From the NCBI RefSeq assembly GCF_963967315.1, contig NZ_OZ017288.1, positions 360,001-392,000 on the forward strand: DNA of 32,000 bases, in the 5' to 3' direction. Shown here piece after piece: positions 2,214 through 30,918 of the stretch (its first letter is position 1; each line of letters opens with the position of its first letter). The translations under genes and the position numbers were made by a program. Below the pieces are notes generated by a model. That model had not been told where the DNA came from and made no database searches. It worked only from the letters and a program-made list of their open reading frames with translations. The stretch is from Candidatus Minimicrobia sp. QA0096. Its GTDB lineage: Bacteria > Patescibacteriota > Saccharimonadia > Saccharimonadales > Saccharimonadaceae.

Positions 2214-4019
2214 ATGGATCCATATATTTATACAGAAAAGCCAAAATACCAGCCGCATGATATTGAAGATGCGTCCGAATTTTATGATGTAATTGAACGA
2301 AGCAGCTTAACGCATCAATTGTCTGAAAACCGACCATATGTCTATTGGACGATGGAGATTTATGATAAATCCAATGGTATTAAAGGCGGCGGCGGACTTG
2401 GAGTTTTAGCGGCGGACACGCGACGTGTAGCTGAAAAATTAGAAGTTCCATTCGTAGTAGTAGCACCGTTTTACCGTAGCGAATCACACCAGAAAATCAC
2501 CGACCTCGCACAAGAAGAGTTTTCGGAATCCGTTTCACCTCAAGATTACGGATTTGAATATATTGACGAAGTTTTCGTAAGTTCAAATGGATTCCCAGAT
2601 GCAAGCTTAAGCATTTTTAAGAAGACGCTCGGTTCAACACAATTTGTTACAATTTCAGAACCGAACTTTGGACAATTGTACGAAGGCGACGGATCTGGCG
2701 ATCATAGACTATACCAAGAAGTAGCGCTGGGATTTGGCGGCTATAAAGCATTAAAGCTCCTCGGTATTAAGCCGGCTGTTATTCAACTTAATGAGACCGC
2801 AACGATTTTTGCTGCATTGGCACGACTAGACGAGCTGTGCGCTAACGGAATGAATTTATACGAAGCCATCGTTTACGTTCGCAAGCACACACTTTATACA
2901 AACCATACGCTTCTTCAAGCGGCCGAACCGGAATTTCATCGTTCGCAATTTGAAAAATTAGTTCTGCCAAATATAAAGAGCAACGCCGTACGTTGCTGGC
3001 TAATGGAACAATTTCGCAACGACAGACTGAGGCCGAATCTTTTGGCAATTGAACTTACTGAAGCGAAGAATGGTGTAAGTAAACTACACGCCCGTGTAGC
3101 AAATTTCCGCGACCGCAACAACGACAAAGTTAAATTTCAAGCCATTACTAATGGAATAGATCTCGAAACGTGGATGCTACCTGAAACATTGCAAACATAT
3201 CGCAATCATGGCATTATCGATAAATTTGGGCTGCCCACAAATGATTTTTCTGAAAAATTAGACTCGTTGAGTAGTGCGGATTTGAGGTATTTGAAAAAAC
3301 TCGGTCGAAAGGAGTTGAATCGAGTCCTATTGAGTCGCAAAGATCAGTACGGAAAATCCATACAAATCCCAGAAAATGCAATATTATTCGACTTCAAGCG
3401 AAGATTCGCCAATTACAAACGACCTTATATGCCGTTTGAAAACCCAGATTCATTACGACAAATTCTCATTAGCCATAACGCGCATTATATTCTGACAGGA
3501 AAAGTTCACCAAGGTGACGTGACGATGTATCAGAAATTGCTCGAAGTATTAAAATTGATTGACAACGATCCAGTCCTCAAGGAGCGTGTTCATTACATAC
3601 AAGATTACGATGAAGAGTTGGGGCGAGCGTTAGCAATCGGCTCAGATGCCTCGATAAATATTCCTATTGTCGGATTAGAAGCGTGCGGCACTTCATGGGA
3701 GAAAGACGTCGCCAACTTGAAACTCCTCATCTCCACTAGTGACGGCGGCGTTGCTGATGTCCAGCCAATCGCTTGCCTCGAGGTTACCGGGAGAAACTAC
3801 GAAGCCGAAGTTTCATCTCTGTACGTCAACATGCATAAAGCTGCCGCTATTTTGAAAAATGATCAATTATTGGAAAAACATGTTCGCCACCAATTAAGCA
3901 ACTATTTGCCAATTATCTCTGGCGCTCGAATGATGAAAGATTATCTCAAATTTATTTTTCCAAAACCGCAAATCCAGCCTAAAAAAGAACCACAGATCAA
4001 GCGAATTCCTATTCAATAA
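2214..4019 (+). CDS. glgP: alpha-glucan (glycogen/maltodextrin) phosphorylase family protein, GT35, short and divergent
   Basis: 601 aa. GT35 motifs appear in the correct order: GGGGLGVLAAD, YTNHTLLQAAEPEF, NGVSKLHA, ITNGI, FDFKRRFANYKR, TGKVHQGD, and EACGTSWEK (the PLP-lysine position). An AAGGG SD lies 6 nt before the ATG. Confidence 0.75.
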   Translation: MDPYIYTEKPKYQPHDIEDASEFYDVIERSSLTHQLSENRPYVYWTMEIYDKSNGIKGGGGLGVLAADTRRVAEKLEVPFVVVAPFYRSESHQKITDLAQEEFSESVSPQDYGFEYIDEVFVSSNGFPDASLSIFKKTLGSTQFVTISEPNFGQLYEGDGSGDHRLYQEVALGFGGYKALKLLGIKPAVIQLNETATIFAALARLDELCANGMNLYEAIVYVRKHTLYTNHTLLQAAEPEFHRSQFEKLVLPNIKSNAVRCWLMEQFRNDRLRPNLLAIELTEAKNGVSKLHARVANFRDRNNDKVKFQAITNGIDLETWMLPETLQTYRNHGIIDKFGLPTNDFSEKLDSLSSADLRYLKKLGRKELNRVLLSRKDQYGKSIQIPENAILFDFKRRFANYKRPYMPFENPDSLRQILISHNAHYILTGKVHQGDVTMYQKLLEVLKLIDNDPVLKERVHYIQDYDEELGRALAIGSDASINIPIVGLEACGTSWEKDVANLKLLISTSDGGVADVQPIACLEVTGRNYEAEVSSLYVNMHKAAAILKNDQLLEKHVRHQLSNYLPIISGARMMKDYLKFIFPKPQIQPKKEPQIKRIPIQ

Positions 4020-5532
4020 TCACTTCAATCTCAGCACCTAACGAGTTTAAGCGTGTCGCCAATTCCTCGTATCCGCGATTAATCGAATATACATCGCGCA
4101 GAATCGACACACCTGGAGCAGCAAGCATTGCCAAAAGTATCACAACGGACGGACGAAGCGCTGGCGGAGCAACAACGTCGGCCGGCTTCCATCTTGTTGG
4201 ACCAGTGATATAAACACGGTGTGGGTCAACCAGTTCAATTTGTGCATTTAGTTTACTGAGCTCTGTAAAGTAAATTGCTCGGTTCTCGTAACTCCAGTCG
4301 TGAACCAACGTGCGTCCCTCAGCTACCGTCGCAATAAGCCCCAAGAACGGCAAATTGTCCATATTAATTCCCGGGAACGGCAAGGCGTGTAGCTTATCCT
4401 TGGCTGCCTGGAGTTTGGAACGCCGCAATTTAATATCAACCAAACGAGTTTGTCCATTATTAGCAAAATATTCCTTGCTGAGTTCAAATTTAAGACCCAT
4501 CTCCGCCAATGTCGCTAATTCAATTTCCAAGAACTCAATCGGCGCACGACGAACAGTAATTTCCGAATCCGTCACTGCAGCCGCCGCAATAAAACTCATC
4601 GCTTCAATCGGATCTTCGCTCGGATAATAGTCCAGATTTTTACTAATTCGTTTACGACCCGTGATTTTCAAGGTTGTCGTACCAATTCCCTCAATTTTCA
4701 CACCCAACTTCTTCAAGAAGAAGCAGACGTCTTGAACCATGTAATTTGGGCTAGCGTTGCGGATGATGGTAGTGTTTGGCGACAACGCCGCAGCCATAAT
4801 GATATTTTCCGTCACCGTATCGCCGCGCTCCGTCAGCAAAATCGTTCGATCGCCAGAATTGACATCAGTTTTTGCGTGATAATAATCAGTTTCCGCCGTA
4901 ACGTTCATTCCAAAATGTCTCAAACCACTAAGATGCGGCTCGACCGTGCGCTTGCCTAAATTACAGCCGCCAGCAAACGGCAATTTGAAATCGTCATATT
5001 GATGCAGTAGCGGACCAAGGAACATAATTACCGTCCTAGTTCTCTTCGCCGCAGCAATATCCATATCTTCAAGTTTCAAGCGCGCTGGCGGCACGATCTC
5101 AAGATCACTACCGTCCAACCAGCGAGTTTTAACACCAATCGAATTCAAAACCTCGATAATTCGGTTGACCTCCTCAATTCGCGCCACTTTCCTAAGCGTC
5201 GTTTTTCCCTTATTCAACAAACTCGCACAAAGAAGACCTACTGCAGCGTTTTTACTAGTCTTAACTTGTATCTCACCAGACAATTTTTTGCCGCCAGTGA
5301 CCTTAAAATTCATTTTTCCGGAATGATTTACGGTTACGATATTGTTATTAAGCACCTCGCTAATTCGAGCGATCATATCAATACTAATATTCTGACCTCC
5401 GTTTTCAATGCGATTAATAGCACTCTGAGATGTACCAATTGCTTCAGCCAACTGAGTCTGAGTTAGCCCCTGTTTTTGACGATTTTCAGCGATTAAATTG
5501 CCGATTTTTTGAAGATACTTGTCTTTTATCAT
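4009..5532 (-). CDS. murA: XRE-type helix-turn-helix domain fused to UDP-N-acetylglucosamine 1-carboxyvinyltransferase (MurA)
   Basis: 507 aa. Residues ~8-66 form an XRE HTH (GLTQTQLAEAIGTSQSAINRIENG). From Met74 the sequence is MurA-like: TSKNAAV (the Lys22 region), AGGCNLGKRTVEPH (catalytic Cys and Arg), and NRGYEELATRLNSLGAEIE at the C-terminus. No stop separates the two parts. Confidence 0.85.
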   Translation of the reverse strand: MIKDKYLQKIGNLIAENRQKQGLTQTQLAEAIGTSQSAINRIENGGQNISIDMIARISEVLNNNIVTVNHSGKMNFKVTGGKKLSGEIQVKTSKNAAVGLLCASLLNKGKTTLRKVARIEEVNRIIEVLNSIGVKTRWLDGSDLEIVPPARLKLEDMDIAAAKRTRTVIMFLGPLLHQYDDFKLPFAGGCNLGKRTVEPHLSGLRHFGMNVTAETDYYHAKTDVNSGDRTILLTERGDTVTENIIMAAALSPNTTIIRNASPNYMVQDVCFFLKKLGVKIEGIGTTTLKITGRKRISKNLDYYPSEDPIEAMSFIAAAAVTDSEITVRRAPIEFLEIELATLAEMGLKFELSKEYFANNGQTRLVDIKLRRSKLQAAKDKLHALPFPGINMDNLPFLGLIATVAEGRTLVHDWSYENRAIYFTELSKLNAQIELVDPHRVYITGPTRWKPADVVAPPALRPSVVILLAMLAAPGVSILRDVYSINRGYEELATRLNSLGAEIEVIIE

Positions 5533-6929: not shown

Positions 6930-7397
6930 TTACGAAGCACAAGAACCGATTGTTCGCTCTTCTACCTTGCTTGTCGAGAAATTGTAGTACTTAACGTGCG
7001 CACCCGTAGCATCACCCGTATCCGGACATGGCTTATACTCAATAGTATTAGCTTCTCCTGGGGCGTGACCGTCAGCAAGAGCTGTGGTAGTAGTCTTAAC
7101 AGTACTCTCGTCTAAGTAGTATGGTTCGCCAGTCTGCGAAACAGAAGAAGTGCCATCAGTAACAGTCTTATTTGTTAAGTCTGATAGTTGATGTGGATAT
7201 TTGCTCTTTGCTGTGTTGTATAGCTCAGCTTTCTTAGCAACAGCGTCAGCAGCAGATTTAGCAGCAGATGTCTTTGCCTGGTTTTGCAAACCGTTGTATG
7301 CAACCAAAGAAACAACTGTCAAAATTGCGATGATCACGATAACGATCAAAAGCTCAACTAGTGTAAAACCTTGATTTTTGATATTCTTTGTAGTCAC
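6930..7397 (-). CDS. pilA: type IV major pilin (PilA-like prepilin)
   Basis: 155 aa with a class III signal (MTTKNIKNQG|FTLVELLIVIVIIAIL, Glu at +5) and a C-terminal Cys pair (C124, C153). GTG start with an AGGGGG SD 9 nt upstream. It is the last gene of the pilin operon and is followed by a strong hairpin. Confidence 0.85.
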   Translation of the reverse strand: MTTKNIKNQGFTLVELLIVIVIIAILTVVSLVAYNGLQNQAKTSAAKSAADAVAKKAELYNTAKSKYPHQLSDLTNKTVTDGTSSVSQTGEPYYLDESTVKTTTTALADGHAPGEANTIEYKPCPDTGDATGAHVKYYNFSTSKVEERTIGSCAS

Positions 7398-7438
7398 GAT
7401 AATGTGCCCCCTAAATTGTTAGTTTGATTTGTAACTTG

Positions 7439-7467
7439 ATAATACTACAACGTTTTTAAAAGCGCAA
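7439..7467 (-). promoter_or_regulatory. possible pilA-specific promoter: -35 TTGCGC, 17-nt spacer, -10 TATTAT
   Basis: Located in the 78-nt gap between the RCC1-pilin stop and the pilA GTG. The match is weak. Confidence 0.3.
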
Positions 7468-7475
7468 GCGTTTTT

Positions 7476-9254
7476 TTAATATATATATCGATTTTGTACT
7501 GGACGCAAGAATAAAGATTCCGTCGGGCTGAACCTATTATTTTCACTACCTGAAGTTCCGTCACCAATCTGCCCATTATCATTCAATCCCCAACAGTAAG
7601 AGCGCTTGTCCGACATAATTGCACAGCCGCGGTTTGCCCCAGCAGACAAACTCACTACACTCTCTGAAGCAGGAAGCCCATTTGGACCAACATTAACTGG
7701 CCGAGGAGTAAATGAATATTGAACGTCCGCCCTATTTGCTCCAAGTTGACCCAATCTGTTATCGCCCCAACAATAGACTTTCTTAGTACCAGCATCGTTC
7801 ATCAAGGCGCAAGAATGAGCAATGCCAACCTCAACCTGCAGTGCCACCCCAGGCAAACCACCGACCAACCTCGGCTCAATATGCTTTTTAGGAGTACCAC
7901 TCCCCGGAGATCCAGCCTGTCCGCGCCCAGCGCCACCCCAGCAGTACACTTTACCTGCAGCAATAGCGCAGGTGTGAGTTACATAATCAGGAGAGCCCGA
8001 CCAAGTGTATCCATCTTGAGATATATCAGTCACATCCTCCAAGCCCTTAACTCTGGTAGCATTACCATAGCCGCTATAATGCGGCACACCAATACCTAAC
8101 TGCCCAAACCTAGCTTGCCCCCAACAGTAAGCTCTTTTTTCGGTGGTTATAACGCACATAGTTTCTGAACGAGATCCGCCAGTTGATAACTTAGTAGCAG
8201 AATAATTATTAGGAAGCCTGTCGGGGCCGCCCGAATTAATACGCACTGGCGTTGCGCTGGACTTAGGGCTGCCGGGGCTCCCGTAACCCAATTGACCTAT
8301 ATTATTACTACCCCAACAATACACCTTTCCTGCAGCAATAGCACACGAAACATCACCAGTTCCTCCAATTGCACTAATATTATTTCCAGCAAAATCTGCA
8401 GCTAGTGCGCCAGTAGGCGGTTTAACCTCGACTGGGACACTAGAATATTTGCCGTCGCCAAAATCTCCATTACCTAGTTGTCCAAATTTATTATTACCCC
8501 AACAATATATTTTCCTGACAGAACTAAATTCAGTCAATACACAGCTATGAAATTGTGCCGCAAATATATCAATAATCTTCCCGTTTCTCATATCGCCCAC
8601 AGAACGCACCTTTACGGGTACATTAGAACTAACAGTAGTTCCGTCGCCCAATTGACCCATAGTATATTCATTACTTTCATACTTGTCATTATTGCCCCAA
8701 CACCAAACATTATTCGACAATATAGCGCACGTGCGATAAGTGCCGCTTACTGTGCGCGTTGCGTCAATATCAGCTGGCCAAGTAACTGATTTTTTTACAA
8801 CAGCAGTATAAGTTTTTAAGACTGTGCCACTACCATTTGTTATTTCAACGCGACCAGTTGACGAAATTTGAGCGGTAGCAGCCGACAAGGCTGCACTTTT
8901 AGTTGACGCTTCCAAATTGCCAACTTCAAAAGTCGTTCTTAACTTGCTATTCTCAAATACATATCTATTACCAGGAAAAGCTACAGCCCCCTTGCAATTA
9001 GTTTCCGGGCGAAGCGGACCAATTCCACCAGGAACCGAACCCCATGATTGCTCAGCTCCATTAGAATCCAAGCAAGCGTTGGCATACGCCGTACCTGCCT
9101 CGCCAGCCTCTTGAGCTAACTTATAATAATACTCTTCCTGAGAGTAGACATACGACTGAGTTACAACCCTCATAGCTCCAGCCAAAAGCGCCAGTATAAA
9201 AGTACTCATAAGTACAATTAACACCAAAGAATAGCCGTTTTTTTGTCGAATCAT
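7476..9254 (-). CDS. modular minor pilin: PilX-type N-terminal segment fused to a seven-blade RCC1-like beta-propeller
   Basis: 592 aa. The N-terminus MIRQKNG|YSLVLIVLMSTFILALLAGAMRVV resembles PilX_N and has no Glu5. Seven repeats carry x(W/Y)CWG...GQ(L/I/A)G, with Cys at aa 185, 251, 313, 377, 438, 495 and 554. The start overlaps the upstream gene by 4 nt (ATGA). Confidence 0.8.
   Translation of the reverse strand: MIRQKNGYSLVLIVLMSTFILALLAGAMRVVTQSYVYSQEEYYYKLAQEAGEAGTAYANACLDSNGAEQSWGSVPGGIGPLRPETNCKGAVAFPGNRYVFENSKLRTTFEVGNLEASTKSAALSAATAQISSTGRVEITNGSGTVLKTYTAVVKKSVTWPADIDATRTVSGTYRTCAILSNNVWCWGNNDKYESNEYTMGQLGDGTTVSSNVPVKVRSVGDMRNGKIIDIFAAQFHSCVLTEFSSVRKIYCWGNNKFGQLGNGDFGDGKYSSVPVEVKPPTGALAADFAGNNISAIGGTGDVSCAIAAGKVYCWGSNNIGQLGYGSPGSPKSSATPVRINSGGPDRLPNNYSATKLSTGGSRSETMCVITTEKRAYCWGQARFGQLGIGVPHYSGYGNATRVKGLEDVTDISQDGYTWSGSPDYVTHTCAIAAGKVYCWGGAGRGQAGSPGSGTPKKHIEPRLVGGLPGVALQVEVGIAHSCALMNDAGTKKVYCWGDNRLGQLGANRADVQYSFTPRPVNVGPNGLPASESVVSLSAGANRGCAIMSDKRSYCWGLNDNGQIGDGTSGSENNRFSPTESLFLRPVQNRYIY
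7479..8747 (-). repeat. seven tandem RCC1-type blade repeats (protein-level, 57-66 aa period) inside the pilin-like CDS
   Basis: The motifs are VWCWGNN..GQLGDG, IYCWGNNKFGQLGNG, VYCWGSNNIGQLGYG, AYCWGQARFGQLGIG, VYCWGGAGRGQAG, VYCWGDNRLGQLG and SYCWGLNDNGQIGDG. The DNA copies are diverged, and I saw no long exact repeats. Confidence 0.8.
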
Positions 9255-10105
9255 AAGTTATTTATCTTTCGTATTGTTAAGGTTTGCGAATCAGAAACTT
9301 GCTTACTTGGTGATTGTATCGTTAAAGTAACCTCTACATTATCCGCGCCATCAAGAGCTTTCTTATCGCTATCTGGAGCGTCGCTATTTTTGCTTATTAG
9401 CGTTTTTCCATCATAGTAATTAATCTTAAATTCCGAAACTCCAGTCGCTAAAATCGAATCTTCACGAAGCTTCATAGCTCGATCTTTAAACTTATCAGCA
9501 TCCAGGCTATTCATACAGAAATATCCCGCAGCAGACCCTGAGTATGGCGCTGGAGGGTAACTGGAGAAATCAACTAAATCATTATAGATAGTCCGTCGAT
9601 GCAGCTCTCCATTCTTCAAAAAATATATGACTATTTTTTTATACTTCGGTTGCTGAGTCTTATTTACATTACAGTCAAACTTTGGAGTTCTTAGATACAC
9701 AATCTCCCTAGAATCAGCGCCTCTGCCCATATTTGTAGCATATTGAAGCAGTATAAGTGAGTTCTTTTCGGGATCAGTAATGGCGCTACTTGAATACGGA
9801 TTACTTCTATATCTCCATTCTCTAGGCGTCGCACTAGGGAAATTTTTATCGGTAGCAAACGTATCCTCTCCATCATAACTACTCACCTTAAAACGCGAAG
9901 CTTGACGAACATCAGTTTCAATTGCATCCATGGAATTGTGCATATTTCGACTAATCTCGACTTTTGCCTTGCTGATAGACGCACTTTGGTTTGCTGAAAT
10001 TAACATCTGACTAAACACGCCGACGACCATTGCGACAATGACCATCACCATTGCCAATTCGACTACGGTAAAGCCCTCCTCATTAGAACGCCACATATGT
10101 CGCAT
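9251..10105 (-). CDS. minor pilin, PilW-like
   Basis: Prepilin motif SNEEG|FTVVELAMVMVIVAMVV followed by a ~260-aa globular part. The ORF is open to 10150. Met codons at 10105 and 10096 give an 11- or 8-aa leader peptide, and the exact start is uncertain. The gene overlaps its upstream neighbour. Confidence 0.7.
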   Translation of the reverse strand: MRHMWRSNEEGFTVVELAMVMVIVAMVVGVFSQMLISANQSASISKAKVEISRNMHNSMDAIETDVRQASRFKVSSYDGEDTFATDKNFPSATPREWRYRSNPYSSSAITDPEKNSLILLQYATNMGRGADSREIVYLRTPKFDCNVNKTQQPKYKKIVIYFLKNGELHRRTIYNDLVDFSSYPPAPYSGSAAGYFCMNSLDADKFKDRAMKLREDSILATGVSEFKINYYDGKTLISKNSDAPDSDKKALDGADNVEVTLTIQSPSKQVSDSQTLTIRKINNL

Positions 10106-10547
10106 GTACCACCTTCTTTCCACTACCCACACCAGAGCTTGGCAATCCATACTCTACGATAGACTCCACTTTAACCGGCATCCCCAGGCTAACCGTTCCA
10201 CTCTTACATCCGTATGGCGCTGATGCATATACTTCCTGCTTAACCGTTCCTGGTAGCCCGTCAATATTACCCACACTTTCCTCAACTTTATATCTAGAAC
10301 CCGGAGCCCTAAAGATCGGAGGAGGGTCTGTACATTTAAACCAAGACGGAGCGGAATCATTCGCGTAACGACGCATATTATTATATGCCAGAAGACTCGC
10401 CTTGTTGTACTGGGCATTCATGACTGATATCTGGCTAACTTGCGCTTGCATACTCAATATAACAGCCATGAAAATACCAATAACAACCAGAGTAACTGCA
10501 ACTTCGACAATAGTAAATCCATCGCTTTTTCCCACTAGTCGCGCCAT
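10083..10547 (-). CDS. minor pilin, PilV-like
   Basis: 154 aa with prepilin motif MARLVGKSDG|FTIVEVAVTLVVIGIF. Overlaps the upstream pilin gene by 13 nt. Confidence 0.75.
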   Translation of the reverse strand: MARLVGKSDGFTIVEVAVTLVVIGIFMAVILSMQAQVSQISVMNAQYNKASLLAYNNMRRYANDSAPSWFKCTDPPPIFRAPGSRYKVEESVGNIDGLPGTVKQEVYASAPYGCKSGTVSLGMPVKVESIVEYGLPSSGVGSGKKVVHATYVAF

Positions 10548-11020
10548 ACACTATCCACCTTCTTCTCTACTCCTGTTGAAAACTCTTTATATATAATGCT
10601 ATATTTCACACAAGTTACCGCTACAACATCAGACACAGGACCGGACGCAGGCTTCGTGCAATCGCCGTCATCCACATTCGAAGCTTCATACAATAACTCA
10701 CCATTATTTCCGCCAGCCCAATCACTACGATTACACTTGATCATCTCCTTTTTCAGAGAATCACCTCCTACAATTGATGAAAAATCCTTAATTAAATCAG
10801 CACAGGAAGGATACTCGTGACCGATAGAACTAACATTTTTATACTTGTAATATCGTTCCAACCTCAAGGACAGTTCAGACACATCAGCCCTCTGCTCCTG
10901 ATCTTTAGTTAGGTTCAAAAATCTTCCGCCACCAACAAAGGCAATGCTAGCCAAAATTGCAACAACCACCACTACTATCGCCAATTCAATTATCGTATAA
11001 CCACCCGTCCCACGATTCAT
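10535..11020 (-). CDS. minor pilin (FimU/PilE-like), first gene of the minor-pilin operon
   Basis: Prepilin motif MNRGTGG|YTIIELAIVVVVVAIL. The track ORF starts at a TTG (11038), but the ATG at 11020 gives a typical 7-aa leader and lies 6 nt downstream of TACAAT. Confidence 0.75.
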   Translation of the reverse strand: MNRGTGGYTIIELAIVVVVVAILASIAFVGGGRFLNLTKDQEQRADVSELSLRLERYYKYKNVSSIGHEYPSCADLIKDFSSIVGGDSLKKEMIKCNRSDWAGGNNGELLYEASNVDDGDCTKPASGPVSDVVAVTCVKYSIIYKEFSTGVEKKVDSVWRD

Positions 11021-11026
11021 ATCAAT

Positions 11027-11032
11027 ATTGTA
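11027..11032 (-). promoter_or_regulatory. -10 box TACAAT, 6 nt before the minor-pilin ATG 11020
   Basis: Reverse strand reads GCTACAATATTGATATG. Confidence 0.45.
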
Positions 11033-11061
11033 GCGCAAATCTACAAAAAAGCATATGCTTA

Positions 11062-12141: not shown

Positions 12142-12218
12142 GCACCCGTAGCTCAGCGGATTAGAGTACTTGGCTTCGAACCAAGGGGTCGCAAGTTCGA
12201 ATCTTGCCGGGTGTACCA
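12142..12218 (+). tRNA. tRNA-Arg (anticodon TCG), CCA encoded
   Basis: Acceptor GCACCCG/CGGGTGT, anticodon stem CTTGG/CCAAG with loop CTTCGAA, T arm GCAAG-TTCGAAT-CTTGC. Confidence 0.9.
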
Positions 12219-17139: not shown

Positions 17140-18660
17140 ATGAAAAAAATCCGTATATATCTTAAAAAGCTATATGCATTTCTTTATAAAATGCCAGGTT
17201 GGATTTGGCTAATTCCAATCTTAATTTTAGCCGTCAACGTTCGACTTACCTATTTAACAAAAGCCGATATTTGGCATGACGAAGGATATACGGCAGCCAT
17301 CATTCAGCAGCCGATCAGGGAAATTATCGCCATTACGACCACGGATGTCCACCCGCCGCTTTATTACGTTATTATGCATGTTTGGCAATCGATTTTCGGC
17401 AATTCCGTAGCTTCACTCAGAGGGTTTAGTGTTACGTGCGGAATTCTTACAATTGCCCTATTATTTCTATTACTCCAAAAACTTTTCTCTAAAAGAATCG
17501 CCGTATTTGGAAGTTTTTTAGCAGCGCTAGGACCGTTCTTAATCCGCTATAGCGACGAAGCTCGAATGTATGCGCTGGCGGCACTTTTGGCTGTAGCAAT
17601 GACATACGCATTCGTCGTGGCGGTCGAGCACAAAAATAAGAAGTTCTGGTGGGCGCTATACGGAATTTTAGTAGCACTCGGTCTTTATACACAATATTTC
17701 CTAGCGTTAATACTACCCGCGCATTTCGTATATATTTGGCTAAAGCTTGGCGGAAATCGCACTGCCATAAAAAATATATTTAAGGACAAAAACGTTTGGC
17801 TTGCCGCAGAAACATGCTTTTTACTATTCCTCCCCTGGCTACCAGTTATGATCTCCCAAACCAGCCGAGTAAGCGGCGGCTTCTGGATCCCCGAAGTTAC
17901 TAAATTTACCATACCAACAACATTATCAATGTTCTTGACTTACGACGACAGGATTGTCCGCTATTTTGGATTGTTACTGCCGCCAATTATAATCGCAATT
18001 TCATTCACCCTAGCCAAAAAACACCCAAAATACCAAGCAGCAATTTGGATTTTAACAATCTGGTCGCTACTACCAATGATTATTATTTACATACTTAGCC
18101 AGGGTCGACCAGTTTACTTAGATCGATACTTCACTTATTCAGCGCCGGCGTTTTACGGCTTGATTGCGGTATTCATCGGGCTTATTTTTTCTAATAAAAA
18201 ATGGTGGCCTATTGGAATATCTATTGTCCTGACATTATTTATTGGTCATTACATGTGGCATATTGGCGGTAAGAATATTGCGGAATCATCCTGGAACAAC
18301 ACCAGCACAGCCATGAATCATATAAATGAAAATATCCAGAGTAGTGATGCTATTATCTCTGGCGAAATCTACACTTACTTTCACACTTCCTATTACAACC
18401 GCACAAATAAAGAAATTATACTTCTGAAGCCGAAAGAAGAGCTAGGTTGGGTTGGCGAATGGGGATTAATTAAAAAATTAAATACTCCAGAAATTAGCTC
18501 TTTAGAGTCAGTAAAATCCCCAAGAATCTGGCTTATTCTTCGCGAAAAAACATATGATGAATATAAAAAACAAGTTCCACTCTATTGGCAATTAAAGCAA
18601 GAATTTCATGATGGCGATTTGATTATTGGACTATACGAAAATAAAAAAATAACTGGTTAA
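17140..18660 (+). CDS. GT-C fold polyprenyl-phosphate-sugar dependent glycosyltransferase (ArnT/PMT, GT39-like)
   Basis: 506 aa with about 10 or more hydrophobic helices. The first-loop acidic motif ADIWHDEGY and DVHPPLYY are typical of this family. Begins 3 nt after gatD. Confidence 0.72.
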   Translation: MKKIRIYLKKLYAFLYKMPGWIWLIPILILAVNVRLTYLTKADIWHDEGYTAAIIQQPIREIIAITTTDVHPPLYYVIMHVWQSIFGNSVASLRGFSVTCGILTIALLFLLLQKLFSKRIAVFGSFLAALGPFLIRYSDEARMYALAALLAVAMTYAFVVAVEHKNKKFWWALYGILVALGLYTQYFLALILPAHFVYIWLKLGGNRTAIKNIFKDKNVWLAAETCFLLFLPWLPVMISQTSRVSGGFWIPEVTKFTIPTTLSMFLTYDDRIVRYFGLLLPPIIIAISFTLAKKHPKYQAAIWILTIWSLLPMIIIYILSQGRPVYLDRYFTYSAPAFYGLIAVFIGLIFSNKKWWPIGISIVLTLFIGHYMWHIGGKNIAESSWNNTSTAMNHINENIQSSDAIISGEIYTYFHTSYYNRTNKEIILLKPKEELGWVGEWGLIKKLNTPEISSLESVKSPRIWLILREKTYDEYKKQVPLYWQLKQEFHDGDLIIGLYENKKITG

Positions 18661-18695: not shown

Positions 18696-18772
18696 TGGTC
18701 GGGGTGAAAGGACTCGAACCTTCGACCTCACGGTCCCAAACCGCGCGCGCTAGCCAACTGCGCCACACCCCG
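18696..18772 (-). tRNA. tRNA-Pro (anticodon TGG), CCA encoded
   Basis: On the reverse strand: acceptor CGGGGTG/CACCCCG, anticodon stem CGCGG/CCGTG with loop TTTGGGA, T arm GAAGG-TTCGAGT-CCTTT. Confidence 0.9.
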
Positions 18773-22570: not shown

Positions 22571-24349
22571 ATGCGTGTTTCAGACCAGACAATTGAGAGC
22601 ATTCTGGAACAAGGTGGGGTTGTTGATGAGCCGCAGCTTGCTGATTTGAAATTGATAGCTGAACGGTCAAAGCAAACATTGCAAGAAACCGCTATTGAAC
22701 AAAAAGTCATTTCTGAGGAAGATTTGACAAAGTTGATCGGCGATTATATCGGTGTACCTTTCGTGCGAATTGAGCCAAAGGATATTCCCGAAGATATATT
22801 GAAACGAATTCCCGAACATATCGCACGCCAGTATAATGTTGTGCTTTTTGAGAAAAACGAGGACGACAGCCTGTCGCTTGCGATGGAAGACCCAGATGAC
22901 GTACAGGCGCTGAACTTCATCCAAAAAGAAATTGGCTACAACACTAAGGTTTTCCTAGCGACAAAAAGCAACATTTTAGACTGTTTGGAAAATTATCGCG
23001 GCAATATTAACGCCGAGCTTGACGAAGTTATTGCGGTGCAAAAAGACGCGTCTGCCGAAGACCAAAATGTTAGTCAAGACGATTTTGCGGAAAATTCACC
23101 AATTGCCCAAACTGTTAATTTACTACTGGAATATGCCATAAAATCCAACGCTTCTGACATTCACATTGAGCCACGCGAAGATTACGTTCAGGTTCGTTAT
23201 CGAATTGACGGTGTTTTGAAGGAAGTTAACAAATTGCCACGAAACGTTCACGGCGCTTTAGTGAGCCGCATTAAAATTCTCTCCAATCTGAAAATTGACG
23301 AACGCCGCGTACCACAGGACGGCCGATTTAAGATAAAAGTTTCAGGAAAACAATACGCGCTTCGTGTTTCGACATTGCCAATCGCTGACGGCGAAAAAGT
23401 AGTTATGCGTATTTTGGACGAATCGAACCAGGCTGTTAAACTGGATCAGCTTGGCTATTGGGGTCTGTCGCTCGCAACCGTAAAAGACGCAATGGCTCAG
23501 CCGAACGGAATGATTCTGGTGACTGGACCGACTGGATCGGGAAAATCGACCAGTTTGTTTAGCGTCTTGTCGGAGCTTAATACTCCAGATGTCAATATTT
23601 CCACAATTGAAGACCCAGTAGAATATAAAATCCCAGGGGTCAATCAAACCCAGACCAACGCCAAAGCTGGGATGACTTTCGCTTCAGGGCTAAGGGCGCT
23701 ACTTCGCCAAGACCCAAATATCATCATGGTCGGAGAAATTCGCGACGGCGAAACCGCAAACCTTGGTGTTCAAGCGGCGCTAACTGGACACCTGGTATTC
23801 TCCACTCTACACACAAATAACGCCGCAACATGTTTGCCGCGTCTGCTGGATATGGGAATTGAGCCATTCTTGATCGCTTCAACCGTGAAGGCGGTGATTG
23901 GACAGCGCCTAGTTAGGCGCCTGTGTATGAATTGTCGCCAAGAATACACTCCAAACGAAGAAGAAATAAAGTATATCACCGAGATGTTTAAGATAAACAC
24001 CGAGTCGATTAAAAAAATTCACAATCTCGAAGAACAGGCTTTTGAGGATAAAATTGGCGGCGACACGCCTATGGGGTCAACCGATTCAGGAATTGAACGA
24101 TTATGGAGGCCGAACCCAGAAGGCTGCGATAAGTGTGGACATAATGGATTCAAGGGTCGCGTTGGCATTTACGAGGTTCTTGGTATCTCCATCCCTATCC
24201 AAAAAATGATTACCGCCAACGCCACCAGCAACGATATTCAAGATCAAGCGATTTCCGAAGGCATGGTGACAATGCAGATGGACGGACTTATTAAATCACT
24301 GCGCGGGATCACCACCGTGGACGAAGTTTTGAGGGCAACAAGGGAGTAA
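22571..24349 (+). CDS. pilB: type IV pilus assembly ATPase PilB (GspE family)
   Basis: 592 aa. T2SSE_N-like N-terminus, Walker A GPTGSGKST, Asp/His boxes, and the tetracysteine CMNC...CDKC motif. Confidence 0.9.
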   Translation: MRVSDQTIESILEQGGVVDEPQLADLKLIAERSKQTLQETAIEQKVISEEDLTKLIGDYIGVPFVRIEPKDIPEDILKRIPEHIARQYNVVLFEKNEDDSLSLAMEDPDDVQALNFIQKEIGYNTKVFLATKSNILDCLENYRGNINAELDEVIAVQKDASAEDQNVSQDDFAENSPIAQTVNLLLEYAIKSNASDIHIEPREDYVQVRYRIDGVLKEVNKLPRNVHGALVSRIKILSNLKIDERRVPQDGRFKIKVSGKQYALRVSTLPIADGEKVVMRILDESNQAVKLDQLGYWGLSLATVKDAMAQPNGMILVTGPTGSGKSTSLFSVLSELNTPDVNISTIEDPVEYKIPGVNQTQTNAKAGMTFASGLRALLRQDPNIIMVGEIRDGETANLGVQAALTGHLVFSTLHTNNAATCLPRLLDMGIEPFLIASTVKAVIGQRLVRRLCMNCRQEYTPNEEEIKYITEMFKINTESIKKIHNLEEQAFEDKIGGDTPMGSTDSGIERLWRPNPEGCDKCGHNGFKGRVGIYEVLGISIPIQKMITANATSNDIQDQAISEGMVTMQMDGLIKSLRGITTVDEVLRATRE

Positions 24350-24353
24350 CATT

Positions 24354-25580
24354 ATGCCAATTTTTGAATATTTGCTTGTCAATAAAAAGAAAGAGACCGT
24401 CTCTTCAACGATTGAAGCGGCCGACAAACTATCTGCCATTAACAATTTGAGGTCACGCGGACAATTAATAAAAATTGAAGAAAAAGGCGCAAAAAAAGAG
24501 CTTAGTTTTTCTTTCGGCAAGAAAAAGAAAGGTGCCAAGACTGAAGAATTGGTGATGTTTACTCGTCAATTAAGCGCCATGGTTTCAGCCGGCGTTCCTA
24601 TTCTTCGCTCCCTTAACTCTATGGCAAAACACGCCGAAAGCGCCAATTTCCGAGACACGATCAACGCTGTTATTAAAGACATTGAAGGTGGTATGTCTTT
24701 CGCGGATGCCCTGAGCAAACACCCAGAAACCTTCAATGATATTTACGTGAATATGGTTGCTGCGGGTGAAACTGGAGGTATTTTGGACGATATCTTAAAA
24801 CGTCTAGCTTTACAACAAGAAAAAAACTCATCCATGAAGAAAAAAATTAAAGGCGCCATGACATATCCGATCGTACTTTTAATTATTACGATTATTGCCT
24901 TCTTTATCCTGATGATTTTCATTATTCCAGTTATCGGTAAAACCATTAAAGACATGGGCGGACCTGACGCCAAATTGCCACTTCTTACTGAGATTATGCT
25001 CGGAATTAGCGATTTCGTAGTGTCGTTTTGGTATATAATCATTCCAATATTTGTCGGAAGCATTTGGCTATTGATTCGCTACATTAAAACCCCAAAAGGT
25101 CGCGTCAAATTTCACAATATCATCATCAAAGTTCCAGCTGTCGGTCCAATTGTTAAGAAGGTGGCAATCGCTCGCTTTACTCGAACCTTCTCCGCCCTTA
25201 TCGGTGCGGGCGTGGCTGTGCTTGAAGCGCTGGACGTAACTTCGCGTGCCGTCGGAAATGTCGCTTACGAAAAGTCCCTAAAAGAAGCCACCAAGCGAGT
25301 CCAAAACGGTGAAGTCTTGTCAAAAATTATTGCCGAACGAGATGATTTATATCCGCCAATCGTAGCACAGATGTTGTCCGTTGGTGAAGAAACCGGACAA
25401 ACAGACAAAGTTCTGATTAAAGTTGCCGACTTTTATGAGGAAGAAGTTGACACTGCGATTGACGGCGTTAGTTCTATCATTGAGCCAGTAATGATCGTTG
25501 CTATGGGTGTTGTTATTGCCCTAGTGGCGGTTAGTGTTATGGGCCCAATTACAAGTATGGCAGGTCAAGTTAAGGAATAA
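24354..25580 (+). CDS. pilC: type IV pilus platform protein PilC (GspF family)
   Basis: 408 aa with duplicated T2SSF domains and 3 hydrophobic helices. A GGGAG SD lies at the end of pilB. Confidence 0.9.
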   Translation: MPIFEYLLVNKKKETVSSTIEAADKLSAINNLRSRGQLIKIEEKGAKKELSFSFGKKKKGAKTEELVMFTRQLSAMVSAGVPILRSLNSMAKHAESANFRDTINAVIKDIEGGMSFADALSKHPETFNDIYVNMVAAGETGGILDDILKRLALQQEKNSSMKKKIKGAMTYPIVLLIITIIAFFILMIFIIPVIGKTIKDMGGPDAKLPLLTEIMLGISDFVVSFWYIIIPIFVGSIWLLIRYIKTPKGRVKFHNIIIKVPAVGPIVKKVAIARFTRTFSALIGAGVAVLEALDVTSRAVGNVAYEKSLKEATKRVQNGEVLSKIIAERDDLYPPIVAQMLSVGEETGQTDKVLIKVADFYEEEVDTAIDGVSSIIEPVMIVAMGVVIALVAVSVMGPITSMAGQVKE

Positions 25581-25600
25581 TGGTTTTTCAAAAAAGCTTA

Positions 25601-25609
25601 TGTTATAAT
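25601..25609 (+). promoter_or_regulatory. internal promoter upstream of pilM, extended -10 box TGtTATAAT
   Basis: Located in the 57-nt pilC-pilM gap, followed by a GGTGGG SD and the GTG start. Confidence 0.45.
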
Positions 25610-25637
25610 ACCGATATATAGGTGGGAAAATAATAAC

Positions 25638-26690
25638 GTGTCGAGCATATTTTATAGAAAAAAACCAATTATCGGCCTAGATATCAGCCGAACAAGCATA
25701 AAAGTAATGTCGATTGATAGAAATCGGATGCTGGTTCATGGATATGGATCGATTAACCTTGATTCTCAAAAAAGCGACGGAAATTCTACAGACAACACTG
25801 AATATTTAGCGCAGAATATCAAAACGTTATTGAAGAAAAACGTCGTAGGACAAATTAATAGCAACCGCGTGGCGCTAGGCATACCGACCAACCGAACATT
25901 TTCGCGGACATTCAGCTTACCTGTGAAAGAAGAAAGCAATATTCGCAGTGCGGTAAATTTGGAAGCCGAACAATACATTCCAGCTCCGTTAGATTCTCTT
26001 TATTTGGACTATCGAATCATCAATCGTACGAAAGATGAGCTTAGTGTGCTAATGTGTGCTGCACCGAAGAAAATGATCGACAGCATGTTAGACGCCACAA
26101 AACAATGTGGTCTGGAAGTTGCAATAATTGAGCCGAACATCAGCGCAATCGCTAGACTTCTGAAGCGCACAGAAGAAGGAATACTTCCTACTATTATTGT
26201 CGATATAGGCACATCAACTACAGATATTGCAATTCTAGATTCCGATATACGTGTGACGGGCGGCTTAAATGTTGGCGGCTATTCACTCACCTTAAATTTA
26301 GCTAAAAAAATGAACGTACCAATTGAAACAGCTCATCAATTTAAGGTATTAAACGGATTAAATCCCGGCCCAAGGCAAGCCAGAATCGCAGGAGCCTTGC
26401 ACCCAAGTTTGGAAAAAATGACCAATGAAGTTAAGCGCGTTATGCGATATTACACAGACCGCTTCCCTGATGAGAAAAAAATCGAGCAAATTCTCATAGT
26501 CGGCGGCGGCGGTAATTTACCAGGAATTGGTGATTTTTTCACAAACGAGTTATTAATGCCAGCACGCGTGGCAAGTCCGTGGCAAATGCTGAATTTCGAT
26601 GGACTAGAGCAGCCGGCAAAACAGCTTCGCTCCCAGCTATCACCAGTCGCGGGACTAGCCTTAATCAAGCAGGAGGATATTTATGATTAA
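25638..26690 (+). CDS. pilM: type IV pilus assembly protein PilM (actin-like ATPase fold)
   Basis: IIGLDISRTSIKVMSI N-terminus, IVDIGTSTTDIAIL and ILIVGGGGNLPG motifs. GTG start with a GGTGGG SD. Confidence 0.85.
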   Translation: MSSIFYRKKPIIGLDISRTSIKVMSIDRNRMLVHGYGSINLDSQKSDGNSTDNTEYLAQNIKTLLKKNVVGQINSNRVALGIPTNRTFSRTFSLPVKEESNIRSAVNLEAEQYIPAPLDSLYLDYRIINRTKDELSVLMCAAPKKMIDSMLDATKQCGLEVAIIEPNISAIARLLKRTEEGILPTIIVDIGTSTTDIAILDSDIRVTGGLNVGGYSLTLNLAKKMNVPIETAHQFKVLNGLNPGPRQARIAGALHPSLEKMTNEVKRVMRYYTDRFPDEKKIEQILIVGGGGNLPGIGDFFTNELLMPARVASPWQMLNFDGLEQPAKQLRSQLSPVAGLALIKQEDIYD

Positions 26691-27258
26691 CCTCCTCCCT
26701 CCTCAAGAAAAAAAGCAAATCAGCGCCGGGCGAGTAAATGTCATCTTAAGGCGGTACTGTATCATATCATTGATATTTGCAGGTTTACTATTCTTAACTA
26801 TTGGCGGATTTTATCTATTCTTAGAAAATAGCCGCACCTCAGCTCAAGCCAACATCGACGAAGGAAACGCTAAGCTTGCTCAATACCAATCGACACAAAA
26901 AGAAGTTAGCGAGTTTAAGAAAGACCTCGACTCGGCTAAGGCGATAATTAGCAACGAGGCTCATTACTCTACAATTATCCCAAAAATTGCACAGTACATC
27001 CCATCAGGTATGGTTTTGGACTCTCTGACGCTAGACACTTCAGCGTTAGATAAACCATTGTCATTAACAGCTCTTGGAAAAAATAAGGATGACGCTATTC
27101 GAATAAAAACCAGCTTAGAAAAGTCAGAAATATTTAGTGACGTTCACTTGGAGACTGTTGTTTATAGCGATGGAAGCCAATCGTCAGACAAGCCTGCGGA
27201 TTATCCAATCACTATAACAATTAGCGTTACACCAAAGCCAGAGGTCTTAAAACAATGA
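26683..27258 (+). CDS. pilN: PilN-like bitopic pilus alignment protein
   Basis: MINLLPP N-terminus, which is the PilM-binding peptide in known systems, then a single TM helix. AGGAGG SD. Overlaps pilM by 8 nt. Confidence 0.7.
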   Translation: MINLLPPQEKKQISAGRVNVILRRYCIISLIFAGLLFLTIGGFYLFLENSRTSAQANIDEGNAKLAQYQSTQKEVSEFKKDLDSAKAIISNEAHYSTIIPKIAQYIPSGMVLDSLTLDTSALDKPLSLTALGKNKDDAIRIKTSLEKSEIFSDVHLETVVYSDGSQSSDKPADYPITITISVTPKPEVLKQ

Positions 27259-27848
27259 AAAAAGTTCTAAATGCCAGTATTGCGCGAATTGTCCTGTCGT
27301 TACTATTGCTCATAATATTATCAGCAATGGTGGGACTAGTTATTTTCGCCTATTCATTCTTAAGTAAAACATCAGAAGAAGTTGGAAAAATGCAAACAGA
27401 AGCAATTGCAGTTGATGCAAAAATACAAAGTTTGCTAGCGTCAAAATCTCAGCTCGACCGCAATTCCGACACAGTTAAAAAAGCAAAGAATATCGTCTCA
27501 GAATCGAAACTTTATCAATACCAGAATCAGATTATTAAGGATTTAAATACCTACGCTGACCGCGCCGGTATTCCGATTAAAGCTTTCTCTTTCCAAAACG
27601 AACCAACAACTTCTGCTAAGACAGCGAAATCTAGCAAGCGGACACCCGCCAGCCCTGCTGGGGTGAAAAGTACTTTCGTATCAATTCAATTGGGAGATCA
27701 CATAGATTATACGAAATTCCTACATTTCCTTAGTCTTATTGAAAAAAATGTCACTCGAATGCAGCTTTTAGGCGTGTCAATTTCCAGAGGTGCAAATAAT
27801 CATGAAATATCAATCCAATCACTTGAAGTAAAGGTTTATACACGATGA
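27255..27848 (+). CDS. pilO: PilO-like bitopic pilus alignment protein
   Basis: Single N-terminal TM helix followed by a coiled-coil segment. It occupies the operon position after pilN and has an ATGA overlap. Confidence 0.55.
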   Translation: MKKVLNASIARIVLSLLLLIILSAMVGLVIFAYSFLSKTSEEVGKMQTEAIAVDAKIQSLLASKSQLDRNSDTVKKAKNIVSESKLYQYQNQIIKDLNTYADRAGIPIKAFSFQNEPTTSAKTAKSSKRTPASPAGVKSTFVSIQLGDHIDYTKFLHFLSLIEKNVTRMQLLGVSISRGANNHEISIQSLEVKVYTR

Positions 27849-28153: not shown

Positions 28154-28741
28154 ATGCTTATATCCGCAGATCGCTTCCTTGATATTCCCGTCATGAGTCT
28201 TCAGACGGGCTCCGAACTGGCGCGAACATCGCGAGAAATTATCAATCCGAAGAATCTGTCTATAATCGCATATGAGCTTGAGGGGCGACTTTTGGACCAA
28301 CATCCTAGTTTACTTCGCGTTGACGATGTCAGAGAAATTGGGCCGCTCGGTATGATTATTGATTCAACCGATGAGATCATAGGCATTGATGATGTTATTG
28401 CTATAAAAGAAATTTATGAAATCAATTTTGCATTAAAAGACAAGTTGGTTATTGATGAAAAGAATAAGAAAATCGGAAAAGTTATCGGATATACGTTGGC
28501 GGCTGGGAATTTTATTATACAACAGCTCCGAATTCGGCGACCATTCTTGAAAAGTTTTGGCGACACAGAGCTACTTATTCATCGTTCTCAGATTGTAAAA
28601 GTGACCGATGATAAAATCGTTGTAAAATCAGCAACTATCTCGCATATAGCCGAAAAAACACCTATTCCGCAGATAAATTCATACGAAAACCCATTCCGCA
28701 AGCAGCCTCGTCCACAACCAGAATCTACAAAAGTTGATTAA
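28154..28741 (+). CDS. tandem PRC-barrel-like domain protein
   Basis: 195 aa. Two segments resemble PRC barrels (IPVMSLQTGSELARTSREIINPKNLSIIAYELEG and LVIDEKNKKIGKVIGYTLAAGNFIIQQLRI). The domain call rests on remembered pattern only. Confidence 0.5.
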   Translation: MLISADRFLDIPVMSLQTGSELARTSREIINPKNLSIIAYELEGRLLDQHPSLLRVDDVREIGPLGMIIDSTDEIIGIDDVIAIKEIYEINFALKDKLVIDEKNKKIGKVIGYTLAAGNFIIQQLRIRRPFLKSFGDTELLIHRSQIVKVTDDKIVVKSATISHIAEKTPIPQINSYENPFRKQPRPQPESTKVD

Positions 28742-30525: not shown

Positions 30526-30918
30526 ATGAATAAGCGAAACGGTTTCACTATTATTGAACTTTTGGTTGTAGCGACTTTCTTGATTGTTATCGCAATCTTA
30601 GGTTTCTCACAATATACAAAATTGACCAACGAATCAAACAACGCCAAAAAACGCACCGCGATTAACGCTATGCATTATAGCCTGGAAGAAGGTTTTTACG
30701 TTAAAAATGGCTATTACCCAGAGAAGCTAGAAGAAGGTACGCTTCCAACTATGGATCCCGCATTGTTAAAAGATCCACAAGGTAAGAAAATTGGCGAAAA
30801 AGACAGCAGTTACCGCTATGAATCTTCAAATTGTAATGACGGAAAATGTAAGTCATACAAACTTGTCGCGACGCTTGTCGATGAAGATGACTATATAAAA
30901 GAAAGTCGCCACAAATAA
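30526..30918 (+). CDS. orphan type IV pilin / pseudopilin-like protein
   Basis: 130 aa with prepilin motif MNKRNG|FTIIELLVVATFLIVIAIL and a C-terminal CNDGKC pair. Confidence 0.8.
   Translation: MNKRNGFTIIELLVVATFLIVIAILGFSQYTKLTNESNNAKKRTAINAMHYSLEEGFYVKNGYYPEKLEEGTLPTMDPALLKDPQGKKIGEKDSSYRYESSNCNDGKCKSYKLVATLVDEDDYIKESRHK

Follow-up and report, generated by a model that had tools for sequence, protein, structure and literature searches.

The 32,000 bp window analysed here (contig NZ_OZ017288.1, positions 360,001 to 392,000, of Candidatus Minimicrobia sp. QA0096, assembly GCF_963967315.1) includes a type IV pilus (T4P) operon in which one gene joins a pilin-like anchor to a seven-bladed RCC1 propeller. 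The open reading frame (ORF), identified below as the orthologue of pilX2 of Nanosynbacter lyticus TM7x, is a real gene and occupies positions 7476..9254 on the minus strand, with its stop codon at 7476-7478. It has an ATG start. The coordinates and the length of 592 amino acids are those given in a preliminary description of the sequence, and of these particulars only the strand requires amendment; the plus-strand frame across the same interval is interrupted by many stops. The gene overlaps the upstream 299-residue pilin gene by four nucleotides (ATGA), and a 155-residue pilin with a strong N_methyl motif, the major pilin, is encoded 78 nt downstream; the overlap and the place before the major pilin are as previously described.

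The protein begins MIRQKNG/YSLVLIVLMSTFILALLAGAMRVV, where the slash marks the putative cleavage site, and has Leu instead of Glu at position +5. The leader MIRQKNG (residues 1-7, 9234..9254; all coordinates within the gene are on the minus strand) is short and basic, ends in Gly and is followed by about 20 hydrophobic residues (MIRQKNG/YSLVLIVLMSTFILALLAGAM), as in class III signals; conservation of the junction points to cleavage by prepilin peptidase after Gly7. A predicted helix, alpha1 (residues 8-64, 9063..9233), has a hydrophobic N-terminal half lacking Glu5 and a C-terminal half (residues 34-62) that is almost invariant, and is succeeded by a pilin head (residues 65-165, 8760..9062) composed of a loop pinned by Cys61 and Cys87 and a three-stranded antiparallel sheet. 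The RCC1-like beta-propeller spans residues 166-580 (7515..8759), and the protein ends in an invariant tail, LFLRPVQNRYIY (residues 581-592, 7479..7514; entropy 0.15), that lies beyond the propeller core.

The propeller is recognizable by seven (W/Y)CWG...GQ(L/I/A)G repeats set 57-66 residues apart, with Cys at positions 185, 251, 313, 377, 438, 495 and 554, just as counted in the preliminary description. Searches with the Pfam families of RCC1-like repeat propellers (PF00415 / PF25390) gave significant matches to WD40_RLD, the RCC1-like domain (E = 5e-54, 184.4 bits against a cut-off of 150), to RCC1 (E = 1.3e-40, 138.1 bits against a cut-off of 21.7, in seven stretches) and to RCC1_2 (E = 3.5e-35, 119.3 bits against a cut-off of 22), and these E-values put the repeat pattern far beyond chance. 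An AlphaFold2 (AF2) model built on a 37-sequence orthologue alignment has 28 strands within residues 165-580, with predicted local distance difference test (pLDDT) values of 80-95, and Foldseek matches it to UVR8 (E = 1e-28, template modelling (TM) score 0.88) as well as to RPGR, HERC2 and RCC1. The RCC1-type seven-bladed fold proposed from the repeats alone is therefore recovered by both profiles and structure prediction. As in these eukaryote-type RCC1-like domains there are seven four-stranded blades and a CWG...GQLG signature, with TM scores of 0.74-0.88 to the solved structures, but sequence identity is 20-25% and the PilX2 propeller is predicted to be extracellular and pilus-borne; there is no reason to expect guanine nucleotide exchange activity of it. 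The top 50 Foldseek matches are all RCC1-like or related propellers, and the published resemblance to PLL lectins is absent from among them.

Orthology to PilX2 of Nanosynbacter lyticus TM7x

Orthology was settled by mapping the published TM7x knockout primers onto the window. The genome-specific part of primer PilX2_Up_R, which encodes the C-terminus of PilW2 (LTIRKINNL-stop) overlapping the ATG, maps at 9251 (3 mismatches in 32). PilX2_Dwn_F aligns to 7452-7473, directly past the stop codon, with 2 mismatches in 22, and PilA2_Down_F has its site at 7398, with 1 mismatch. At three related loci (L020, L021 and L025) the match to the TM7x primers is exact, and the proteins encoded there share 72-74% identity with the window protein across residues 1-592. 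Because the TM7x pilX2 primers bracket the ORF, the identity to these three proteins extends over the full length and the synteny is identical, the gene is assigned as pilX2. Judged by its sequence, it is the PilX2 orthologue in an HMT-352-type Nanosynbacter, the predicted adhesin-bearing minor pilin of T4P-2, the second and thin type IV pilus of oral Saccharibacteria.

Full-length relatives with 64-98% identity are present in 50 genomes of oral Saccharibacteria (Nanosynbacter, TM7 HOT-352 and 'Minimicrobia'), the closest being those of UBA6209 and TM7 HOT-352 (97-98%), in agreement with the earlier proposal that the organism is a Saccharibacterium. The window protein and TM7x PilX2 have the same operon, flanks, leader, helix, seven-bladed RCC1 propeller and ATGA junction with pilW2, and share ~73% identity over their full length, the differing quarter or so of the residues being concentrated in the propeller loops. 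The window allele represents a species-level lineage (HMT-352-like) other than TM7x.

The TM7x system has been characterized in some detail. T4P locus three (TM7x_02975-02995) contains pilA2, pilX2, pilW2, pilV2 and pilZ2, and locus two has a T4P machinery content that the window matches, with one pilin beside RecAX (Grossman et al., ISME J 2025, PMC12206443; preprint PMC11623550). PilX2 is described there as a lollipop pilin module that carries a hepta-bladed RCC1 propeller and has no canonical PilD signal, and is proposed by the authors as the adhesin of the thin T4P-2; in the ΔpilX2 mutant host binding falls from 10.6% to 4.6%, the level also seen in ΔpilA2 and ΔpilB2, and thin filaments continue to form in near wild-type numbers, with changed statistics of filament diameter and length (Grossman et al., PMC12206443). 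The purified propeller (P159 to stop) binds TLR2, and ΔpilX2 loses binding to gingival epithelial cells (Nat Commun 2026, PMC13194787). Both the architecture and the adhesin role were thus already known, having been described and tested in TM7x in 2024-2026, and the remark in the preliminary description that no type IV pilin was known to bear an RCC1 module has been overtaken. Its suggestion of an adhesin for host recognition fits the TM7x orthologue, given the ΔpilX2 binding defects and the binding of TLR2 by the propeller. Since the case for PilX2 has been made and tested in TM7x, the window adds only another allele.

Comparison of that allele with others is still of practical use. Conservation was measured among 49 distinct orthologues and dN/dS, the ratio of nonsynonymous to synonymous substitution rates, by the Nei-Gojobori method for 351 pairs at the level of regions. 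Identity to the window protein is 97% in residues 34-62, 85% in the head and 72% in the propeller, where variation peaks in the loops following each GQLG. The C-terminal half of alpha1 is nearly frozen (entropy 0.03, dN/dS 0.007), and dN/dS comes to 0.07 in the leader with the N-terminal helix, 0.13 in the head, 0.10 in the core of the propeller and 0.09 over the last twelve residues (dS 0.52). The post-GQLG loops are the fastest region at 0.32, so a conserved anchor with variable blade loops, looked for on the basis of the preliminary description, is indeed what the orthologues have. There is no sign of positive selection at the region level; the maximum is the value for these loops, and no region averages above 1. 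With the anchor near-frozen and the loops diverging between lineages that have different actinobacterial hosts, the loops are the obvious place in which to seek host-range determinants.

Two irregularities are seen among the relatives. In the complete genome of 'Candidatus Minimicrobia vallesae' IHU2 (CP076459; locus L047, 6001-7785) a tblastn alignment covers residues 1-592 and the ORF stops after 137 amino acids, an interruption that reflects a frameshift, a pseudogene or an assembly error. Two metagenome-assembled genomes (MAGs) each carry two pilX2 alleles, at 96% and 78% identity to the window protein in JCVI_6_bin.3 (L006 and L011) and at 96% and 65% in JCVI_3_bin.14 (L005 and L046); these are probably mixtures of two Nanosynbacter strains, or products of gene duplication.

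The pilin anchor and its family

The N-terminal part of the protein was poorly resolved in the AF2 run on the shallow 37-sequence alignment, and a family alignment of 45 sequences resolved its fold. Residues 1-168 are then modelled with a pLDDT of 90.3 as a pilin "lollipop", with a 57-residue helix (residues 8-64), a loop region, and antiparallel strands at residues 105-111, 125-139 and 145-160. Prediction of the protein by itself accordingly gives a confident pilin module in addition to the confident propeller, and the pilin-like nature ascribed to the N-terminus in the preliminary description is sustained by the fold. No solved pilin is among the Foldseek matches below E = 0.1, and the anchor profile has no significant match among Protein Data Bank sequences, the best relevant one being the geopilin leader (E = 1.3). 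Residues A50, G54, C61, W71, L81, C87 and G89 are invariant across the family, which fits a Cys61-Cys87 disulfide; both cysteines had been noted from the window sequence, and both are invariant in 63 distant family members.

Conservation extends to the junction between leader and helix. Gly7-Tyr8 is invariant among the 49 orthologues, and of 143 members of the wider anchor family, 134 have Gly at -1, 135 have Phe or Tyr at +1, 126 have Pro at +4, 130 have a Lys or Arg no more than six residues upstream, and none has Glu at +5 (0/143). The Gly at -1 and the absent Glu5 reported for the window protein are thus features of the family at large. The family profile is in register with true prepilins (rGFaLPtv, compared with QGFSLPEV in E. 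coli PpdC and QGFTLVEL in PilA2 of the window), and the PpdC prepilin model NF007660 is matched weakly by 29 of 45 anchor modules. Interpretation of NF007660/PRK10332 as E. coli YgdB, a K-type protein, was ruled out, the model being PpdC, a Glu5 prepilin; the weak matches therefore support a prepilin-type N-terminus only and not a K-type one. Despite the negative SignalP result in the literature, the PilX2 leader looks like a class III cleavage site in which Glu5 has been replaced.

An exhaustive HMMER search with residues 1-166 as the query found the anchor module in 498 representative clusters, N-terminal in every case; word-index homologue searches with the N-terminal module, either as a single sequence or as a profile, returned only fragments of close orthologues. 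The modules that it carries vary. Among 63 full-length relatives there are 46 with RCC1 propellers and 19 with ricin-B lectin domains, and Gly_rich_2, phage tail-collar/Gp10_C, NHL, PA14, ConA-like, fibrinogen-C and CBM4_9 modules are also represented. The term modular pilin used in the preliminary description is apt, in that AF2 gives two separately folding modules and the same anchor is joined to other modules in relatives. In Streptococcus sanguinis the modular pilins (PilB, which carries a vWA module, and PilC, which carries a lectin module) likewise belong to a monoderm T4P and have the binding module C-terminal to a pilin. Their class III signal peptides are canonical and include Glu5 and the IPR012902 motif, both of which the PilX2 anchor family lacks, and the modules described for S. 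sanguinis do not include RCC1. Because Glu5 and the IPR012902 motif are absent, catalogues of modular pilins based on motifs probably miss this family.

Some relatives have about 13-14 blades. One of these, in TM7 HOT-348 SAG2 (locus L053, 5590-8340, plus strand), is a 916-residue protein with about 13 CWG blades on a G/Y anchor lacking Glu5, and is encoded after pilV2- and pilW2-like genes and beside murB, an operon position like that of pilX2; it is likely a double propeller. A gene in the Bdellovibrionaceae MAG ND5_Bin_38_1 (L076, 5410-7347, plus strand) encodes a 645-residue protein in which a pilin-type N-terminus (KSGG/FTLLNFIIVIVL, with Asn at +5) is followed by a head of some 195 residues and an RCC1 propeller, and is flanked by two other pilin-like genes. 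The joining of RCC1 to a pilin therefore occurs in another predatory lineage too, possibly as an independent fusion.

Proposed presentation of the propeller at the pilus tip

Classification of PilX2 as a K-type minor pilin (GspK/PilX/PilK/ComGG) rests on the absent Glu5 and on its last place in a cluster ordered H-I-J-K. There is no Glu5, the GspJ-like PilW2 (E = 2.4e-4) is encoded directly upstream, and pilX2 closes the minor-pilin cluster directly before the major pilin gene, the position already pointed out in the preliminary description. Leu at +5 without an N_methyl match is the departure to be expected of K-type minor pilins, and those lacking Glu5 (GspK, PilX, PilK) are genuine filament subunits. 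PilX2 is like them also in being larger than the other minor pilins and expected topmost; GspK has an alpha-domain, whereas the PilX2 head is instead a small three-stranded sheet with one putative disulfide. K-type profiles are scarce among 45 relatives (PilX_N in two, with a best E of 0.0018, and ComGG_2 in one), and alignment of the anchor profile with E. coli YgdB by hhalign showed no similarity (probability 0.2%).

The absence of Glu5 together with the last place in a cluster ordered like GspH-I-J-K would put PilX2 at the top of the minor-pilin cap. We consider it likely that PilX2 is cleaved after Gly7, tops this cap and presents its RCC1 propeller at the T4P-2 tip as an adhesin for the host and TLR2. 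A plausible sequence is that prepilin peptidase would cut the short basic leader after Gly7, and that the hydrophobic alpha1 would hold PilX2 in the membrane and later in the filament core. PilX2 would be the top subunit of a PilZ2-PilV2-PilW2-PilX2 cap, on which PilA2 would polymerise, driven by PilB2/PilC2/PilM2/PilN2/PilO2. From the pilus tip the propeller could bind TLR2 on human cells and, on the actinobacterial host, a surface ligand, and this binding would tether the epibiont ahead of closer contact.

Several points weigh against such a role. The whole PilX2 protein has no match to N_methyl or TIGR02532, PilX_N (PF14341) matches neither the whole protein nor residues 1-171 alone at E <= 10, and the T2SSK and ComGG profiles match neither of them as well; of the 'PilX-type' label in the preliminary description, the position, the absent Glu5 and the fold stand, and the PilX_N profile does not. 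SignalP 6 calls no PilD signal in TM7x PilX2 (Grossman et al., PMC12206443). Loss of PilX2 lowers host binding by only about half, so other adhesins exist. Orthology, the folds of both modules, conservation of a cleavage-type junction and the selection pattern were observed for the window gene, and the binding phenotypes and TLR2 binding come from TM7x only, from a protein ~73% identical to that of the window. Cleavage, filament incorporation, direct binding to the bacterial host and tip position are inferred, the last in the literature as well as here, and the ligand of the propeller on the bacterial host is postulated.

Some of these points would be accommodated if PilX2 were not a pilus subunit at all, and an uncleaved signal anchor held it at the cell surface as a membrane-tethered propeller adhesin, co-regulated with T4P-2 and independent of filaments. 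Such an arrangement would account for the missing Glu5 and the lack of N_methyl, PilX_N and SignalP 6 signals, as well as for the thin filaments that persist in ΔpilX2, and in the monoderm Saccharibacteria a membrane-anchored propeller could reach the outside. However, an uncleaved anchor would need neither the Gly at -1 nor the aromatic residue at +1, each conserved in ~94% of family members, nor the basic residue upstream. The 57-residue alpha1 and the sheet make up a pilin fold, and the near-invariance of the C-terminal half of alpha1 is what would be expected for packing in a filament core. The ATGA overlap with pilW2 within a pilin operon, the equality of the ΔpilX2 binding defect with those of ΔpilA2 and ΔpilB2, and the precedent of the K-type subunits that lack Glu5 also argue against a free-standing anchor, and we regard it as unlikely. 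More improbable still is that PilX2 is mainly an assembly, priming or stabilising subunit of the cap, its mutant defect arising indirectly through filament number, length or composition and its propeller having no direct role as adhesin: K-type minor pilins do prime assembly in other systems and ΔpilX2 alters filament diameter and length statistics in TM7x, but thin-filament counts are near wild-type in the mutant, there is direct binding of TLR2 by the purified propeller, no part evolves faster than the blade loops, and the family swaps in lectin-type modules (ricin-B, PA14, ConA-like, CBM and fibrinogen-C), which argues for a ligand binder.

A tip-located adhesin invites comparison with PilY1/PilC of diderm type IVa pili (P. 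aeruginosa PilY1 and Neisseria PilC), which is likewise a beta-propeller adhesin encoded at the end of a minor-pilin operon and seated on the minor-pilin cap. Members of that class are non-pilin proteins with a Sec signal and an IPR008707 propeller, whereas PilX2 has a pilin-type N-terminus, an RCC1-type propeller and no PilC/PilY1 Pfam match. The likeness may extend to the C-terminus. PilC ends in a disordered 12-residue tail, the plug, that docks by beta-strand augmentation on PilK, a pilin lacking Glu5, and fusing the plug to PilK makes PilC dispensable. The PilX2 tail is also of 12 residues and is left unplaced by AF2, with pLDDT below 50, outside the complete 28-strand propeller. It ends in Tyr or Phe in 83 of 87 propeller-bearing family members, compared with 2 of 19 RCC1 proteins of other phyla that are not pilins.

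What can be added to the literature is confined to two hypotheses, the plug-like tail and the modular platform, and we put them forward jointly and tentatively, as a doubtful reading. PilX2 could be a single-chain equivalent of PilK plus PilY1/PilC with LFLRPVQNRYIY as its plug-like tail, and the anchor a dedicated platform for presentation at the tip. The tail may dock by beta-strand augmentation on its own pilin head or on PilW2, locking the propeller on the cap, and the 165-residue anchor of the 498 clusters (G/F..P junction, no Glu5, Cys61-Cys87) may take swapped ligand-binding modules. Modular pilins of this anchor type would be missed by catalogues built on the N_methyl motif. If both ideas are true, they would link two ways of decorating a pilus tip, the 'modular pilin' strategy of monoderms and the 'PilY1 plus plug' strategy of diderms. 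Saccharibacteria are obligate epibionts for which host recognition is a central question, and PilX2 is currently the best candidate for a first-contact adhesin, one that contacts human TLR2 too.

The pilin operon and its neighbours

The genes in this part of the window are ordered murT, clpB-like, murB, pilZ2, pilV2, pilW2, pilX2, pilA2, glyA, murA and glgP, and the five pilin genes among them are on the minus strand. The orthologue of pilZ2 (10535..11038) opens the pilin operon and encodes a minor pilin with the junction GG/YTIIEL, identified by N_methyl/TIGR02532 matches and by synteny with TM7x-like loci. The pilV2 orthologue (10083..10547) encodes a minor pilin with the junction SDG/FTIVEV (N_methyl, E = 7.9e-5; a weak match to PilV TIGR02523), and the pilW2 orthologue (9251..10150) encodes the GspJ-like minor pilin, with the junction EEG/FTVVEL, an N_methyl match and the weak gspJ match given above. 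The mechanically called pilW2 ORF of 299 residues has at least 20 residues before the prepilin junction (…SNEEG/FTVVEL) and overlaps the end of pilV2; the start is probably an internal Met, because the orthologues are called at 281-284 residues. Beyond pilX2 is the orthologue of pilA2 (6930..7397), encoding the ComGC/GspG-like major pilin of the thin T4P-2 filament (QG/FTLVELL; N_methyl, E = 1.8e-8). Scans of the operon for promoters and terminators gave results no better than those from shuffled sequence.

The T4P-2 assembly machinery (22571..27848, plus strand; Pfam T2SSE, T2SSF, PilM_2 and PilN) is 13 kb from the pilin operon and comprises pilB2 (22571-24349), pilC2 (24354-25580), pilM2 (25638-26690), pilN2 (26683-27258) and a putative pilO2 (27255-27848). 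It is adjoined by recX, recA and an orphan pilin gene (30526..30918, plus strand) that adjoins recA/recX and encodes a pilJ-like protein of 130 residues (MNKRNG/FTIIELL), which matches the essential PilJ of the TM7x paper. A 195-residue ORF after the PilO-like gene (28154-28741, plus strand) was considered as PilJ and rejected, as it has no hydrophobic N-terminus; it has no Pfam match.

Among the other genes, we note that a PMT_2 / dolichyl-phosphate-mannose-type glycosyltransferase of 506 residues is encoded at 17140-18660 (plus strand), between the pilin operon and the T4P-2 machinery, and could be relevant to the O-glycosylation predicted in the literature for PilX2 and PilA1. The MurA protein (507 residues, EPSP_synthase fold; 4009-5532, minus strand) carries an N-terminal XRE-type helix-turn-helix domain, a fusion that is conserved in related loci. 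Six tRNA genes (His-GTG, Lys-CTT, Arg-TCT, Gly-TCC, Arg-TCG and Pro-TGG) are located at 1278-2181, 12142-12218 and 18696-18772; that for tRNA-Arg(TCG), flanked by murB and the clpB-like gene, lies a short way upstream of the pilin operon.

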